From the NCBI GenBank assembly GCA_963517565.1, contig CAUQGN010000005.1, positions 30,436 to 94,435 on the forward strand: DNA of 64,000 nt, read 5' to 3'. This document shows, piece by piece, positions 43,760 through 50,118 of this stretch (positions within the stretch are counted from its first letter, which is position 1; each line of letters opens with the position of its first letter). The notes beneath the pieces were generated by a model, which saw nothing but the letters and a program-made list of their open reading frames with translations, searched no databases and was not told the origin of the DNA. Source of the stretch: an uncultured Leptotrichia sp. (GTDB lineage: Bacteria; Fusobacteriota; Fusobacteriia; Fusobacteriales; Leptotrichiaceae). The position numbers and the translations under genes were made by a program.

Positions 43760-44113
43760 TTTACTTAATTTTTCCTTTCCATAAAATACACTTCAAAATC
43801 CCTAACTTTATTTCAATTTGCAGAAGTGTGGATATATTTTATAACTTTTTTCATTTATTTGCAACAATTTTTATTTTTCAAATTTAGATACATCTATTGT
43901 TAAATCAAGTTTTTAGACAATTTTATAAATAAACAAAATAACTTTTTTACATAATATAATAAAATTTTAAACAAAAATATGATATAATAAAAACAAGACT
44001 AAAAAAGAAAAAATTGAAAAAATACTTATAATATGGTAAAATTATATGTATGATTTTATAATAAATTTAGCGATTAAAAATTTGATTTATAAAATAAAAG
44101 ACAAGGAGGGAAT

Positions 44114-44518
44114 ATGGAACTTAAAGATATTCAGGAATTGATGAAAGTTCTAAAGAAAGAAGGTATAGCAGAACTAAAAGTAAGATATGGAAAAGTAAAA
44201 CTTACATTAACAAATTCTGAAAACACAAATAATGCGAACAATGTAGCATCTGTAACTGAAAAAATAGAAAAAGAAACTCCTAAAGCTGCATTACCAGCAG
44301 AAGAAATTGTCAAGTCAAGCAATGTAGGAAGAATAAAGCTGGTAAGTTCAAAACCTGGAACTCTGGTAAAAAAAGGACAAGTCCTTGCAAAAATAAATAC
44401 AATAGGAATTGATAATGATGTAAAATCCACTGTAAATGGTATTTTGAAAGAAGTGCTAGTAGCAGATGGTTCACCAGTTGACTTTGCAAAAGAACTATTT
44501 AAAATTGAAATTAATTAA
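44114..44518 (+). CDS. accB: Biotin carboxyl carrier protein (AccB) homolog lacking the biotinyl-lysine motif
   Basis: N-terminal AccB-type helix (MELKDIQELMKVLKKEGIAELKV), a linker, and a C-terminal biotinyl-domain fold that aligns without gaps to E. coli BCCP. The EAMKM hairpin is replaced by NTIGI (44396-44410). It lies directly upstream of accC. Confidence 0.75.
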   Translation: MELKDIQELMKVLKKEGIAELKVRYGKVKLTLTNSENTNNANNVASVTEKIEKETPKAALPAEEIVKSSNVGRIKLVSSKPGTLVKKGQVLAKINTIGIDNDVKSTVNGILKEVLVADGSPVDFAKELFKIEIN

Positions 44519-44564: not shown

Positions 44565-45920
44565 ATGTTTAAAAAAATATTAATAGCAAACAGAGGAGAA
44601 ATTGCTGTCAGAATAATTAGGGCAGCAAGAGAATTAGGAGTGGCAACTGTTGCAGTTTATTCAGAAGCTGATAAGGATTCGCTTCATGTGAAACTTGCTG
44701 ATGAAGCTGTCTGTATTGGAACTGCCAGTAGTGCAGACTCATATCTAAAAATACCAAACATTATTTCAGCGGCGCAAATTACAGGAAGTGAGGCAATTCA
44801 TCCAGGATATGGATTTTTAGCAGAAAATCAAAGATTTGCTGAAATATGCGATAAAAATGATATCGTATTCATTGGTCCAAAACCTGAATTAATTAGTATG
44901 ATGGGAGATAAAGCAACAGCAAGGGAAACTGCCATCAAGCATAAAGTCCCAATAACAAAAGGATCAGACGGGATTGTTCCAACTGTAGAAGAAGCAAAAA
45001 AAGTTGCAGAATGGATAACTTATCCTGTTATGATTAAAGCAACGGCAGGTGGTGGCGGAAAAGGAATGAGAATCGCCCACAACCAAAAAGAACTTGTAGA
45101 AAATTTTACTGCTGCTCAAAACGAGGCAAAAGCATCTTTTGGAAATCCAGATGTTTATATTGAAAAATATGTTGAAGAGCCAAGACACGTAGAGATACAG
45201 GTTGTAGGAGACAAATTTGGAAATGTTGTCCATCTTGGAGAAAGAGACTGCTCTATCCAAAGAAGACATCAAAAATTAATAGAAGAATCTCCATCAGCAG
45301 GAATTGATTCAAAAACACGTGAAAAAATGGGAAAATTTGCTGCAAAACTTACAAAAGGAATTGGTTACGACAGCGTTGGAACACTAGAATTTCTTGTTGA
45401 TAAAAATATGAATTTCTATTTTATGGAAATGAATACAAGAATTCAGGTAGAACATACAGTAAGTGAAGAAATTACTGGTGTTGACTTAATAAAAGAGCAA
45501 ATAAGAGTGGCAGCAGGAGAAAAACTAAGTATTTCTCAAAAAGATATAAATATTGACGGGCACGTAATAGAATGCCGAATAAATGCTGAAGATTCTGAAA
45601 ATGGCTTTCTGCCGTCTTCGGGAGTTTTGGAAACATACATTCCATCAGGTGGAATTGGAGTAAGAGTCGATTCCCACTCTTATCAAAACTATGAAATTCC
45701 ACCTTACTACGATTCAATGATAGCAAAACTTATTGTAAAAGGAAAAAATAGAGAAGAAGCTATTGCAAGAATGAAACGTGCCTTAAAGGAATTTATTATA
45801 GAAGGTATTGACACAACTATACCATTTCATTTAAAAGTTCTTGATAATCAGGAATTTAAGAATGGAACTATTTATACAAACTTTATTGAAACACACTTTA
45901 AGGATGCACTTGGCAAATAA
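44565..45920 (+). CDS. accC: Biotin carboxylase
   Basis: MFKKILIANRGEIAVRIIRA..., ATP-grasp GGGGKGMR, and EMNTRIQVEH. Confidence 0.97.
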   Translation: MFKKILIANRGEIAVRIIRAARELGVATVAVYSEADKDSLHVKLADEAVCIGTASSADSYLKIPNIISAAQITGSEAIHPGYGFLAENQRFAEICDKNDIVFIGPKPELISMMGDKATARETAIKHKVPITKGSDGIVPTVEEAKKVAEWITYPVMIKATAGGGGKGMRIAHNQKELVENFTAAQNEAKASFGNPDVYIEKYVEEPRHVEIQVVGDKFGNVVHLGERDCSIQRRHQKLIEESPSAGIDSKTREKMGKFAAKLTKGIGYDSVGTLEFLVDKNMNFYFMEMNTRIQVEHTVSEEITGVDLIKEQIRVAAGEKLSISQKDINIDGHVIECRINAEDSENGFLPSSGVLETYIPSGGIGVRVDSHSYQNYEIPPYYDSMIAKLIVKGKNREEAIARMKRALKEFIIEGIDTTIPFHLKVLDNQEFKNGTIYTNFIETHFKDALGK

Positions 45921-46027: not shown

Positions 46028-46423
46028 ATGAATGAATTAGGAAATGTAAATATATCTCAGGAAGTGGTAGCAACAATCGCAGAGTCAGTAGTATCGGAAA
46101 TTGAAGGAGTACACAGCCTTGTTGGTGGAACTTCTAAAAATGAAATTGTTAAATTTTTCCAAAATGTGTCTTCTGGCGGAAAGGGTATTGAAGTAGAAGT
46201 TGGAGAAACTGAATGCACATTGGATTTGTATATTGTTGCAAAAATGGGATTTAAATTACCTGCGTTAGCTGGAGAAATCCAAACAAAGGTAGTAAAAGCA
46301 ATTACTGAAATGACAGGATTAAAAGTTCAGGAAGTAAATGTATATATTCAAAAAATTATAAAAGAAGACAAAAAAGAAGTTGTGCAAGCTCCTGTAACAG
46401 AAACAGCAGAAATTGAAGAATAA
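46028..46423 (+). CDS. Asp23/Gls24 family envelope stress protein
   Basis: ISQEVVATIAESVVSEIEGVHSL... is typical of Asp23 (the B. subtilis yqhY position downstream of accC). Confidence 0.85.
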   Translation: MNELGNVNISQEVVATIAESVVSEIEGVHSLVGGTSKNEIVKFFQNVSSGGKGIEVEVGETECTLDLYIVAKMGFKLPALAGEIQTKVVKAITEMTGLKVQEVNVYIQKIIKEDKKEVVQAPVTETAEIEE

Positions 46424-46558
46424 AAATCATAATAAATTCAGATAATTTTATTTACAAGCAATATTTGAGTAAATTCACTCAATTAGGAAAGGAGAAACTG
46501 ACAAATACGTACCTTAATCTTAAAATGAAAATACGGTATATTTTGTCAGTATATATTA

Positions 46559-47209
46559 ATGATTGCAATATTAGGATTTTTAGCGAGATTGTCTGTAATA
46601 CTTGGATTGGTTGGTATTGTATTTTCAAGTATATCAGATATTCTGTTTAGGACTGATTATTTAGGACAACTAGATAGTTTTATTGATTTAGGCAGTTTAA
46701 ACTTTAAAATTTTAGTTGGTCTTTTATCAATAATTTATTTAGTTATATTTTTGCTTTCTTATATTAATAAACTTACAAAATATTCTCAAAATAGAAAAGT
46801 AAAAAATAAAAATGGAGAAATTGAAGTTTCCATAAAAACAATCAACGAGACATCAAAAGATTTTCTAAGTGGACAAGAAATTATAAAAAATTCAAAAGTA
46901 AAGTCATATCCAAAAGGGAAAGCAGTTGTTATTGAAGCTACTGTAGATACTTATAATGTTGACAACTTAAATGAAAAATTGTCAGAAATTCAAGTTAAAC
47001 TATCTGATTATGTTTTCCAGTCAACTGGGATTACTGTAAAAAAAAGTAAGGTAAAATTGAAAAAAGTTTTAGGAGAAACAATTGTTGAAAAAAAGATTAT
47101 TGATTCTCCATCTCTTGAAAAAGAAAATAGCAATAGTAACGTAAAACCAAAACTGGAAAACCAAGTTAATGCAGAAATAAAATCTTCCCAATCTGGAAAG
47201 GAAAATTAA
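46559..47209 (+). CDS. Asp23-associated membrane anchor protein (AmaP-like)
   Basis: Two N-terminal TM segments plus a C-terminal Asp23-like region. It follows asp23 and overlaps nusB by 1 nt (TAATG). Confidence 0.6.
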   Translation: MIAILGFLARLSVILGLVGIVFSSISDILFRTDYLGQLDSFIDLGSLNFKILVGLLSIIYLVIFLLSYINKLTKYSQNRKVKNKNGEIEVSIKTINETSKDFLSGQEIIKNSKVKSYPKGKAVVIEATVDTYNVDNLNEKLSEIQVKLSDYVFQSTGITVKKSKVKLKKVLGETIVEKKIIDSPSLEKENSNSNVKPKLENQVNAEIKSSQSGKEN

Positions 47210-47625
47210 TGACACGAAGAGAAATTAGAGAAGAGATATTTAAGCTGCTTTTTGAATATGAACTAATTAATAATAATATTGAAAAAAGAATAAATGATAT
47301 AATTAATGAAGAGAACTTAAAAAAAGATGAGGAAATTGATTTTTTAAAAAGTTATGTTACTGAAATAATTGAAAATGAGAGTATTTTGATTGAAAAAATA
47401 AAGGATGTGTTAGAAGGCTGGACGTATGAGCGTTTAGGAACAATTGAAAAAGTTTTATTGAAAATATCATTTTATGAAATTACGATAAAAAATATTGGAT
47501 ATGAAATTGCAATTAATGAAGTTCTAGAGATTTCTAAAAAATATTCCTATAGCGATACAAAGGACTTTTTAAACGGAATTCTTGCAAAATTAATAAAAAA
47601 TATTAAAGAAGAAAAGTATAAATAA
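47209..47625 (+). CDS. nusB: Transcription antitermination factor NusB
   Basis: MTRREIREEIFKLLFEYE... with size and synteny as in Firmicutes (accBC-yqhY-nusB). Confidence 0.9.
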   Translation: MTRREIREEIFKLLFEYELINNNIEKRINDIINEENLKKDEEIDFLKSYVTEIIENESILIEKIKDVLEGWTYERLGTIEKVLLKISFYEITIKNIGYEIAINEVLEISKKYSYSDTKDFLNGILAKLIKNIKEEKYK

Positions 47626-47868: not shown

Positions 47869-48981
47869 ATGAAAAGAATAGGAATAATAACTGGAAAATT
47901 TTTTCCACTTCACATTGGACACGTAAATTTTATTCAAAGAGCTAGCGGTATTGTAGACAGATTATATGTGGTCATTTCGTATTCTGATAATACAGATGAT
48001 CTTTTAACTTCTAATTCACGTTTTGTGAAGGAAATCACACCAAAAGACAGGTTACGTTTTGTAAAACAGACATTTAAAAATCAGCCTAATATTTCATCAT
48101 TTCTCCTAGATGAAAATCACTTTTCTCAGCAAGGTGATAACTGGGAAGAATGGGCACAGACCTTAAAAAGTGAAATTGAAAAAAGAGAAAAACTGGAAAA
48201 TGAAAAAGCAATAGATTGGAAAAGTGACGTAATATTTATTAGCAACCGTAATGAAGACAAGGAGTATAATTTAAAACATTTTGGCTCAGAAACTAGATCT
48301 ATTGATAAAAATTATATTGAGTACAATGTAAATTCGAAGCAAATACGTGAAAATCCTAGTAAATACTGGGACTACTTGCCACGTGAAGTGAGAGAGCATC
48401 TAATACCTATTATTACAATCTGTGGTGGAGAAAGTAGTGGAAAAAGTGTTATGATAGACAAACTTGCAAATGTTTTCAATACAACTTCTGCTTGGGAATA
48501 TGGACGTGAATACGTTTTTGAAAAATTAGGTGGAGATGAAGAATCATTGCAATATTCTGACTACGAAAAAATAGTTTTTGGACATCAGTCGAATGTCTTA
48601 TATGCTGCTAGAAATGCTAATAAATTTGCATTAATTGATACAGATTACATCGCTACCCTTGCTTTTTGTTTAACTTATGAAAAGCGTGATAATCCGATAG
48701 TTCGTGAATTTGTTCAAAATTATCGTTTTGATTTAACAATTTTGCTTGAAAATAATGTAAAATGGGTAAATGATGGACTTCGTTCAATTGGAGACAACGA
48801 CAGACGTGAAAAATTTCAGAATTTATTAAAGCAATTATACAAAGAATATGATATTCCATATATTACAGTAAAATCTGATAGTTATGAAAAAAGATACCTC
48901 ACATGTAAACATATTATAAAAGCTTATCTGGATGGTGCTGACAATTTAAAACTTCAGGAGATAGCAGATACTTTCATATAA
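47869..48981 (+). CDS. nadR: NadR-type bifunctional NMN adenylyltransferase / ribosylnicotinamide kinase (no N-terminal HTH)
   Basis: GKFFPLHIGHVNFI (the HxGH nucleotidyltransferase motif) right at the N-terminus. A second-half P-loop CGGESSGKS marks the kinase domain. Confidence 0.8.
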   Translation: MKRIGIITGKFFPLHIGHVNFIQRASGIVDRLYVVISYSDNTDDLLTSNSRFVKEITPKDRLRFVKQTFKNQPNISSFLLDENHFSQQGDNWEEWAQTLKSEIEKREKLENEKAIDWKSDVIFISNRNEDKEYNLKHFGSETRSIDKNYIEYNVNSKQIRENPSKYWDYLPREVREHLIPIITICGGESSGKSVMIDKLANVFNTTSAWEYGREYVFEKLGGDEESLQYSDYEKIVFGHQSNVLYAARNANKFALIDTDYIATLAFCLTYEKRDNPIVREFVQNYRFDLTILLENNVKWVNDGLRSIGDNDRREKFQNLLKQLYKEYDIPYITVKSDSYEKRYLTCKHIIKAYLDGADNLKLQEIADTFI

Positions 48982-49168: not shown

Positions 49169-49666
49169 CTATTCTCTTGTTCCCATTTCCTTGTCTAATA
49201 AATATAGTGTAGCACTATTATTATCGACATCAAGTGAAACAATTTTATCAATTAATTTTTGAGCTTGTTCTTCTTCTTCTTCCTGCTCTTCAGCAAATTC
49301 ATTCAAGAATACTTCTGCTCCATAATCTCCTAATTCTCTTGCAAGTTTGTGTATATTTTCAATAGAAGCTGTTACAGCTTCTTCATGTGCAAGAGCAGCT
49401 TCAAATACTTCCTTTACTGACGTAAAGTCCATTTTAGGCTTGTCTAGACCAAGAAATTCTATTTTTCCATTTCTTTTTAATACATATTCATAAAATTTTC
49501 TTGAATGCTCCATTTCCTCTTTAGCTTGATTTCCCATCCAGTTTGCAAAACCTTCTAATGCTCTTTCATCAAAGTATGCAGCCATAGCCTGATATTGATA
49601 AGCCGCTGCTAATTCCATATTTATTTGGTTATTTAGTAATACTTCTAATTCCTTATTTAATTTCAT
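49169..49666 (-). CDS. ftnA: Non-heme ferritin
   Basis: LNNQINMELAAAYQYQAMAAYF ... EEMEHSRKF shows the ferroxidase-centre residues. The C-terminal tail is acidic. Confidence 0.9.
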   Translation of the reverse strand: MKLNKELEVLLNNQINMELAAAYQYQAMAAYFDERALEGFANWMGNQAKEEMEHSRKFYEYVLKRNGKIEFLGLDKPKMDFTSVKEVFEAALAHEEAVTASIENIHKLARELGDYGAEVFLNEFAEEQEEEEEQAQKLIDKIVSLDVDNNSATLYLLDKEMGTRE

Positions 49667-49701
49667 TTTCTCTCCAATCTGAATTTTTATATTTTAAATT
49701 T

Positions 49702-50118
49702 TTAGTTATGTTTCTTCAAACATTTTTCACAAGTGCCTTTTATATAAAAATGTATTTCATCAATTTCTACATCACCTAATTTTGATAAATCAAATTCTGA
49801 TAAATTTACATCAAAGTCAATTATTTCTCCACAAGATTTACACTTGAAATGTCCATGATTATCCGTGACTACATCATATCTTACTTCATTTTCTTCAATT
49901 ATAATTTCTTGAATAATATTATTACTTACAAATATGTTTAATGTATTATAAACTGTAGTCTTTGACAAAGTAGGCATTTCAGGAGATAAACTTTGGAAAA
50001 TATCATCAACTGTTGGATGTGTATGGTGATCCAATAGATACTGAAAAATCTTCATTCTTTGGACTGAAGGCTTTATTCCATTCTTCTTTAAATATTCACC
50101 AACGTTTTCTATATGCAT
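49702..50118 (-). CDS. perR: Fur-family metalloregulator, PerR-like
   Basis: HPTVDDIF, TVYNTLNIF, TDNHGHFKCKSCGEIIDF and CEKC parallel B. subtilis PerR (HPTADDIY, TVYNNLRVF, SDHYHAICENCGKIVDF, CQEC). Confidence 0.8.
   Translation of the reverse strand: MHIENVGEYLKKNGIKPSVQRMKIFQYLLDHHTHPTVDDIFQSLSPEMPTLSKTTVYNTLNIFVSNNIIQEIIIEENEVRYDVVTDNHGHFKCKSCGEIIDFDVNLSEFDLSKLGDVEIDEIHFYIKGTCEKCLKKHN

Follow-up and report, generated by a model that had tools for sequence, protein, structure and literature searches.

The window analysed here is a 64,000-nucleotide stretch from an uncultured Leptotrichia sp. (GCA_963517565.1, contig CAUQGN010000005.1, positions 30,436 to 94,435), which forms part of contig C5 of a 2.1-Mb, 54-contig genome. 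Directly upstream of accC, the gene for the biotin carboxylase (BC) of acetyl-CoA carboxylase (ACC), it carries a gene for a protein of the biotin carboxyl carrier protein (BCCP) type that has no lysine at the position where biotin should be attached. We refer to this gene as accB* and to its product as AccB*, and show that AccB* is an ancient, phylum-wide, non-biotinylatable BCCP paralogue. ACC is the committed and regulated step of fatty-acid synthesis and an antibiotic target, and its bacterial form is taught as an enzyme of four subunits. The features of the locus, with confidence values given as predicted local distance difference test (pLDDT) scores of an AlphaFold2 model, are as follows.

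44014-44042, + strand: candidate promoter TTGAAA-17-TAAAAT with TG, about 70 nt 5' of the start codon (consensus scan)
44103-44110, + strand: Shine-Dalgarno sequence AAGGAGGG, 3 nt before the ATG at 44114 (read from the sequence)
44114-44518, + strand: accB*, lysine-less BCCP paralogue of 134 aa and 14.7 kDa, stop codon included (open reading frame; PF00364; TIGR00531; 4HR7_B)
44114-44215, + strand: N-terminal alpha/beta/beta module, residues 1-34 (pLDDT 76-81; aligns to E. coli BCCP 1-34)
44216-44299, + strand: variable linker, predicted to be disordered, residues 35-62 (pLDDT <50 for residues 37-50)
44300-44515, + strand: thumb-less C-terminal biotinyl-domain fold, residues 63-134 (pLDDT 88-94)
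44405-44407, + strand: codon GGA of Gly98, tip of the beta-hairpin and position of the biotinyl-lysine (sequence, alignment)
44565-45920, + strand: accC, biotin carboxylase (TIGR00514, 741 bits; cut-off 626.5)
46028-46423, + strand: Asp23-family gene, counterpart of YqhY in the Bacillus accBC-yqhY operon (Pfam Asp23, E = 1e-25)
46559-47209, + strand: AmaP, Asp23 membrane anchor (NF033218, 73.8 bits; cut-off 55)
47209-47625, + strand: nusB (Pfam NusB, E = 5.6e-21)

The candidate promoter sits in a 354-nt AT-rich gap after the divergent coaE gene, a region in which the consensus scan gave a count of promoter-like sites upstream of accB* that was not above that of shuffled sequences. The start of accC follows accB* by 46 nt and has its own AGGAGG, and a terminator scan gave no terminator-like site between the two genes.

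AccB* lacks the biotinyl-lysine

Pfam Biotin_lipoyl (PF00364) matches residues 71-131 (E = 1.4e-08), and the BCCP model TIGR00531 aligns residues 1-132 to its positions 1-155 of 156, at 44 bits. The curated whole-protein cut-off of this model is 115.2 bits, which leaves AccB* below and the canonical AccB of the same genome (144 bits, see below) above. A profile built from 20 orthologs gave E. coli BCCP (4HR7_B) as the best sequence match in the PDB, aligned from end to end. This alignment puts Gly98 opposite the lysine of the E. coli EAMKM hairpin, so that the gapless alignment proposed in an earlier reading of this DNA, made from the sequence only, proves to be right. Residues 95-99 (44396-44410) read N-T-I-G-I, as that reading had stated, and the 7-residue thumb is missing, leaving a gap both against E. 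coli BCCP and against the genome's own canonical AccB. AccB* thus departs from the AccB/BCCP equivalog in score, in the biotinyl-lysine of the (A/V)MK(M/L) hairpin and in the thumb, and agrees with it in its three-part architecture and its position adjoining and upstream of accC.

The motif is not hidden elsewhere in the protein or the DNA. The sole M-K pair of AccB* lies in LMKV (residues 9-12), inside the N-terminal helix, and the other two + frames are stop-rich over 44340-44470, with no frameshift that restores an MKM motif. The earlier statements, made from the sequence, that there is no MKM hairpin and no restoring frameshift both hold. The hairpin contains no lysine and therefore offers no target for BirA. 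A sequencing or assembly error at Gly98 is excluded by the identical protein on 5 public contigs and by glycine in all sampled orthologs.

Fold and domain architecture

The structural model was computed with AlphaFold2 from a 107-sequence alignment (mean pLDDT 79.9); an earlier model from 20 close orthologs (pLDDT 56) was not used. In it, the N-terminal module comprises a helix (residues 3-15) and two strands (20-25 and 28-33), and the first 30 residues of E. coli AccB likewise form an alpha/beta/beta motif in the cryo-EM structure of E. coli ACC (PMC11160672). The linker differs in length and sequence between orthologs and, on inspection of the translation, is rich in Lys, Glu, Thr and Asn. 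A beta-barrel follows over residues 63-133, with Gly98 at the turn between strands 90-96 and 99-104. The top Foldseek matches are biotinyl domains, led by P. horikoshii BCCP 5GUA (template modelling score, TM, 0.92; root-mean-square deviation 1.1 A), with E. coli 1BDO (TM 0.83) and Arabidopsis BCCP1 9A87 among the further matches. The end-to-end sequence matches, the model and the Foldseek results together bear out the AccB N-terminal helix and C-terminal biotinyl fold that had been proposed for this protein.

The same genome encodes a canonical AccB

The sequence-only reading had called this protein the AccB ortholog of the genome, a label that does not survive a whole-genome scan. Beyond AccB*, the Biotin_lipoyl scan gave four other strong domains, listed here together with the carboxyltransferase genes of ACC.

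C21:32024-32521: canonical AccB, 165 aa, about 17 kDa, with an EAMKL hairpin and the thumb PSPTASPF (TIGR00531, 144 bits), directly after folD
C1:19396-19812: BCCP, 138 aa, EAMKL, beside PxpB/PxpC-like genes
C2:34851-35225: carrier, 124 aa, EAMKM, inside an oxaloacetate decarboxylase cluster
C8: lipoyl domain on dihydrolipoyl dehydrogenase
C4:63403-64954: accD and accA, adjacent

The genome's real biotin carrier for ACC is the AccB on contig C21, and the cell therefore has a CO2 carrier. Two BirA-type biotin ligase genes are found on contig C2, so the search for a second BCCP, birA, accA and accD that the sequence-only reading had suggested is answered on every count. The idea of AccB* as the only BCCP of this genome is ruled out by the canonical AccB and the other carriers. 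The ACC of this genome has all four classical subunits, and AccB* is a fifth, extra BCCP-type protein.

The remaining carriers stand in settings of their own. PxpB/PxpC (KipI/KipA)-like genes and an NRAMP-type transporter gene adjoin the second BCCP (region C1:19396-21676). On the same contig, 75 kb away, a second biotin carboxylase (C1:96543-98692; 53% identical to AccC; TIGR00514, 668 bits) lies beside a LamB/PxpA-like gene. This C1 pair was considered as a set of partners for AccB* and rejected, as it belongs to a PxpA/B/C-type cluster and occurs in just 5 of the 16 Leptotrichia genomes; it has the look of a biotin-dependent accessory enzyme of the Pxp/Kip type. The oxaloacetate decarboxylase-type cluster on C2 (32522-37399) has a split alpha subunit, made up of a 467-aa carboxyltransferase and the separate 124-aa EAMKM carrier, together with beta and gamma subunits. 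One of the BirA-type genes is located beside this cluster and the other about 5.5 kb beyond it (C2:42924-43520).

Conservation and selection in Leptotrichiaceae

AccB* was found in 37 of 52 Leptotrichiaceae genomes (8 of 14 genera), and each of the 36 loci retrieved has accB* immediately before accC. Relative to the proteins encoded in the window, identity ranges from 45 to 92% for AccB*, against 79-97% for AccC. The lysine column holds glycine in all 36 orthologs, within a motif T/A-I/M-G-I/V/L, and the thumb is missing in every one. All four glycine codons are in use at this position (GGA 22, GGT 7, GGG 6, GGC 1). The exact protein occurs on 5 public contigs and a near relative on at least 1000.

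We compared substitution rates over 106 pairs from 16 Leptotrichia genomes (Nei-Gojobori). The median omega, the ratio of non-synonymous to synonymous change, is 0.20 for accB* and 0.044 for accC; within accB* it is 0.115 for the N-terminal module, 0.40 for the linker (residues 37-62) and 0.12 for the C-terminal domain. Both folded modules of AccB* are under purifying selection.

The distribution of AccB* follows that of its presumed partners: AccB* occurs only together with AccC and a lysine-bearing AccB module. AccC (TIGR00514) is present in exactly the 37 of 52 genomes that have AccB*, and canonical AccB (E below 1e-35) in 35 of these 37, the two exceptions being genomes that are 76% and 82% complete. 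At the same threshold, canonical AccB was not found in any of the 15 Leptotrichiaceae genomes without AccB*, all of which are small (1.0-1.8 Mb).

Glycine is fixed across Fusobacteriota

A profile search of 190 genomes of the phylum matched 146, covering 27 of 36 genera, with scores of 170-205 bits in Leptotrichiaceae and 40-88 bits in other families. Of 20 other-family loci fetched with flanks, 19 have accC immediately after the BCCP-like gene, and the twentieth ends at a contig edge; together with the Leptotrichiaceae, adjacency holds in 55 of 56 loci with flanks, the exception being this cut contig. An asp23 gene follows accC in 18 of the 20. The lysine column is again glycine in all 20 (for example ESVGLK, STIGVN, EAIGVK and LTMGVK), as it is in 20 further other-family matches fetched without flanks. 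Altogether, 76 orthologs were inspected out of about 146 phylum matches (36 from Leptotrichiaceae and 40 from other families): all 76 have glycine, and EAMKM appeared neither in these nor in the independent assemblies. The sequence-only reading had suggested dating the lysine loss inside Leptotrichiaceae. A loss confined to this family is ruled out by the other-family orthologs, and it is instead fixed in every family of the phylum that has accC.

An AccB with the lysine is also encoded in the other-family genomes, at a separate place that follows folD or an ACT-domain gene. Three of these families (G185, G187, G188) carry it as a full-length AccB module fused to the C-terminus of a PycB/OadA-type 5S carboxyltransferase (609 aa; NF006761, 824 bits; TIGR00531, 129 bits at residues 458-608; positions 1442-3271 of locus L153, G185:C1:444000-451000). 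The fusion occupies the ACT-domain-gene locus at which Fusobacteriaceae carry a free-standing accB, and accD and accA are kept in all three. This suggests that in these families the biotinylated module and AccC may be common to ACC and a two-subunit pyruvate carboxylase.

Searches of the sister-family genus g18 (22 genomes), which covered accB* and canonical AccB but not accC, gave no accB* beyond one weak match (G097) and no strong match for canonical AccB. The one genome of g18 that was inspected (G089:C31:216500-224500) has a single BCCP-type match, namely the carrier in a cluster for glutaconyl-CoA decarboxylase / glutaconate CoA-transferase. The pattern in this genus raises the question of how, or whether, malonyl-CoA is made there.

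Lysine-less BCCPs beyond the phylum

To place AccB* among its relatives, the lysine column was tallied over the 124 full-length 50%-identity representatives most similar to it, together with 21 comparison sequences. The residue is Gly in 65 rows, Arg in 7, Asn in 5, Asp in 2 and Ser in 2, against Lys in 63. In Armatimonadota, the 30 best matches from 121 genomes all adjoin accC, and 24 have Gly, 1 Arg and 5 Lys. A scan of named genomes with a 6-sequence subset of the Armatimonadota-type alignment located ALG(L/I)A(N/H)DV proteins upstream of accC in Fimbriimonadales (Armatimonadota), and 3 of the 4 Fimbriimonadales genomes encode, at another place, an AccB-like protein that has the lysine (EAMKVFNE). 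The Fimbriimonadales loci (L071-L073, L157-L162) also carry, after the lysine-less BCCP gene and ahead of accC, a gene for a 125-aa protein whose N-terminus is hydrophobic and prepilin-like and whose C-terminus has the motif ...HPGHEK(F/Y).

A maximum-likelihood tree resolves three groups, namely a Fusobacteriota lysine-less clade (SH-aLRT 91), an Armatimonadota-type lysine-less clade (95) and the thumb-bearing canonical AccBs (96), which include those of both Fusobacteriota and Armatimonadota. This is a quick tree of few columns with many open forks, and it serves only to separate the three groups, not for dating or for exact counts of origins. Because of the three-clade split, the lysine-less proteins appear as old paralogues and not as recent offshoots of the resident accB. 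The separate Fusobacteriota and Armatimonadota-type clades argue for repeated origins.

A possible architectural role for AccB*

Our preferred reading, to which we give slightly under an even chance, is that AccB* may be a stoichiometric, non-catalytic and architectural subunit of ACC that is produced together with AccC. It draws on what is known of the E. coli enzyme. There, oligomerised AccB N-termini appear to make up the central hub to which the carriers are tethered, the C-terminal domain of AccB has a non-catalytic parking site on BC and AccD, and AccB is made at about twice the level of the catalytic subunits, with about 2 BCCP produced per BC (PMC11160672). By analogy, the N-terminal alpha/beta/beta module of AccB* would co-oligomerise with the N-termini of holo-AccB to form a BCCP-tethering hub, and its C-terminal domain would sit in the non-catalytic docking site that AccC offers to BCCP. 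Biotinylated AccB would thereby remain the mobile carrier, and the AccB*:AccB ratio would set the carrier content of the complex. AccB* would in this way assume the architectural part of the work of a BCCP, that of hub and parking site. Three considerations weigh against this proposal: non-synonymous sites change about 4-5 times faster in accB* than in accC; AccB* lacks the thumb, a contributor to BCCP behaviour in E. coli, and may therefore dock differently on AccC; and a brake or regulator would also be expected to co-occur with AccC and AccB.

The most serious competitor, unlikely as we judge it, is that AccB* acts as a competitive brake, either competing with holo-AccB for AccC or forming dead heterodimers with AccB. 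ACC flux would then drop as AccB*:AccB rises, a means by which fatty-acid synthesis could be tied to growth state or to the supply of biotin. A BC-compatible architecture without the lysine is as expected here as it is for an architectural subunit, the structural facts being the same. The plant BADCs, BCCP-like proteins without a biotinylation motif, were first characterised as negative regulators, and they lower ACC activity in vitro (PMC12706156, PMC10440990). As accB is transcribed apart from accB*, in a unit that follows folD, regulation of the AccB*:AccB ratio is conceivable. The operon also holds an Asp23/YqhY homologue, and loss of yqhY in B. subtilis selects suppressors that lower ACC activity (PMC5437119). 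On the other hand, constitutive co-transcription of an inhibitor and its target over the whole history of a phylum would be an unusual design, there is no sign of a sensing element, and the plant field has itself shifted towards a role of BADCs in assembly. Because accB* stays joined to accC in every lineage, we prefer the architectural subunit to a pure brake; as far as gene order can tell, co-translation with AccC throughout suits a subunit better than a conditional inhibitor.

The other explanations fit the data less well. The N-terminal region of E. coli AccB (residues 1-68) represses accBC expression (PMC11160672), and AccB* might on this precedent be mainly an autoregulator of its operon, a copy specialised for repression and freed from carrier duty. 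Its N-terminal module is the best conserved part of the protein (omega 0.115) and aligns with that same E. coli region, but the C-terminal domain, for which a pure N-terminal regulator would have no need, is equally constrained (omega 0.12) and confidently folded; a conserved operator was neither sought nor seen, and we consider this role improbable. We are about as sceptical, or slightly more so, of a role for AccB* with AccC outside ACC, for instance in stabilising a biotin carboxylase shared between ACC and a two-subunit transferase of the pyruvate carboxylase/oxaloacetate decarboxylase type, or in a function other than carboxylation. The PycB/OadA-AccB fusions in three families that keep accD and accA hint that AccC serves more than one transferase, and this genome has the split oxaloacetate decarboxylase cluster. 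Yet the AccC encoded here is an equivalog-level ACC biotin carboxylase, AccB* tracks accC and accB and not the oad genes, and its closest homologues at every level are AccB proteins.

That AccB* is still a carrier, through another residue or with a non-covalent or different cofactor, seems very improbable. It does have conserved lysines elsewhere, such as K104, six residues past the hairpin tip, but canonical BCCPs commonly have this downstream lysine in addition to the one in the hairpin (the genome's own AccB reads EAMKLMNEVKS), the single BCCP tested lost its biotinylation when the motif lysine was mutated (PMC11077971), and a normal AccB is encoded in the genome. Nor does AccB* appear to be a decaying accB relic or an artefact of assembly or sequencing. 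Its score under the TIGR00531 cut-off and its faster evolution than AccC could be taken in that sense; however, its overall omega is 0.2 with both domains near 0.12, the frame is intact, glycine is kept in 76 of 76 orthologs through all four codons, and the contigs that carry the identical protein or its near relatives are independent. Selection, conservation and independent contigs effectively refute this reading.

Extending the architectural subunit to the whole phylum gives a broader proposal, which is possible but which we hold to be doubtful as it stands. The ACC of Fusobacteriota would consist of five proteins, the ancestral BCCP having been split in two. One of the pair, the biotin-free architectural pseudo-carrier AccB*, would be produced along with AccC and provide the N-terminal hub and fill the parking site on BC. 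The other, a biotinylated AccB with a gene elsewhere, would be the sole mobile carrier; some families have it fused to a pyruvate-carboxylase-type transferase, and there it would be shared between enzymes. If true, then together with the Armatimonadota loci and the many metagenomic lysine-less proteins it would show 'dummy carrier' subunits to be an ancient and common invention of bacteria and not a plant peculiarity.

Operon neighbours

The sequence-only reading had placed the gene in the accB slot before accC, asp23 and nusB. The TIGR00514, Asp23 and NusB matches listed above agree with this, with the addition that AmaP lies between asp23 and nusB. The ACC operon therefore holds a complete Asp23/AmaP pair (window 46028-47209), followed by nusB. 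The Bacillus homologue of Asp23, YqhY, has a genetic tie to ACC activity (PMC5437119). Downstream of nusB, the window at 47869-48981 and 49169-50118 holds a gene of the NadR type (nicotinamide mononucleotide adenylyltransferase/ribosylnicotinamide kinase; NF005988, 498 bits), after which a ferritin-like gene and a Fur-family regulator gene lie on the opposite strand (assigned by eye); these are ordinary neighbours.

Significance

In the open-access full-text literature we found no description of a bacterial lysine-less BCCP, and non-biotinylated BCCP look-alikes are discussed there only for plant and algal plastids. Public records label AccB* "acetyl-CoA carboxylase biotin carboxyl carrier protein" or "biotin/lipoyl-containing protein". 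In the very slot that databases and a published operon comparison label "accB", AccB* is kept by an entire phylum of bacteria that are cultured and associated with humans. For annotation, this means that the AccB* records named "AccB" are not carriers; for metabolic reconstruction, the assignment of the biotinylated protein needs revision, and models of ACC assembly and regulation are affected. AccB*, whose function we infer, would surprise a specialist in bacterial lipid synthesis. Leptotrichia and its relatives can be cultured and the parts are small soluble proteins, so that the choice between scaffold and brake, which is open for the plant BADCs, could be addressed in bacteria.

Comparison with known systems

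AccB* shares with bacterial AccB/BCCP (E. coli; 4HR7, 1BDO; TIGR00531) the N-terminal module, the flexible linker, the C-terminal biotinyl barrel and the slot upstream of accC. It differs in having Gly for the biotinyl-Lys, no thumb, a score of 44 bits, a linker rich in Lys, Glu, Thr and Asn, and a true AccB alongside it. The closest structures are the thumb-less biotinyl domains (P. horikoshii BCCP 5GUA and 2EVB; B. subtilis BLAP 1Z6H), which have the same thumb-less hairpin barrel. Unlike AccB*, these carry a biotinyl-lysine and are real carriers, and their crystallised constructs contain no AccB N-terminal module.

The gene order is that of the B. subtilis accB-accC-yqhY(asp23) operon followed by nusB, with a BCCP-type gene, accC, an Asp23-family gene and nusB in both, and the accBC-yqhY operon has been stated to be conserved in Fusobacteria (PMC5437119). 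In Fusobacteriota, however, the first gene is the lysine-less paralogue, accB is now beside folD, and amaP lies between asp23 and nusB.

The nearest parallel in kind is with the BADCs of plants and green algae (Arabidopsis BADC1-3), which likewise have a BCCP-like fold without a biotinylation motif and coexist with a true BCCP and BC. Plant BADCs bind BC and BCCP and promote formation of a BC/BCCP/BADC sub-complex (PMC10440990); they were called inhibitors first and were later shown to act as promoters of sub-complexes (PMC10440990, PMC12706156). The part in building the BC/BCCP sub-complex that is now proposed for them is the one suggested here for AccB*. The BADC analogy drawn in the sequence-only reading stands as the best available, while the negative-regulator role attached to it is only one of two live options, as the plant papers also argue for assembly. 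AccB* differs from the BADCs in being bacterial, in occupying the accB slot of the accC operon and in its phylum-wide presence in Fusobacteriota, and its origin is likely to be independent of theirs. Judged by this analogy, AccB* is probably a bacterial counterpart of the BADC 'dummy carrier' subunits.

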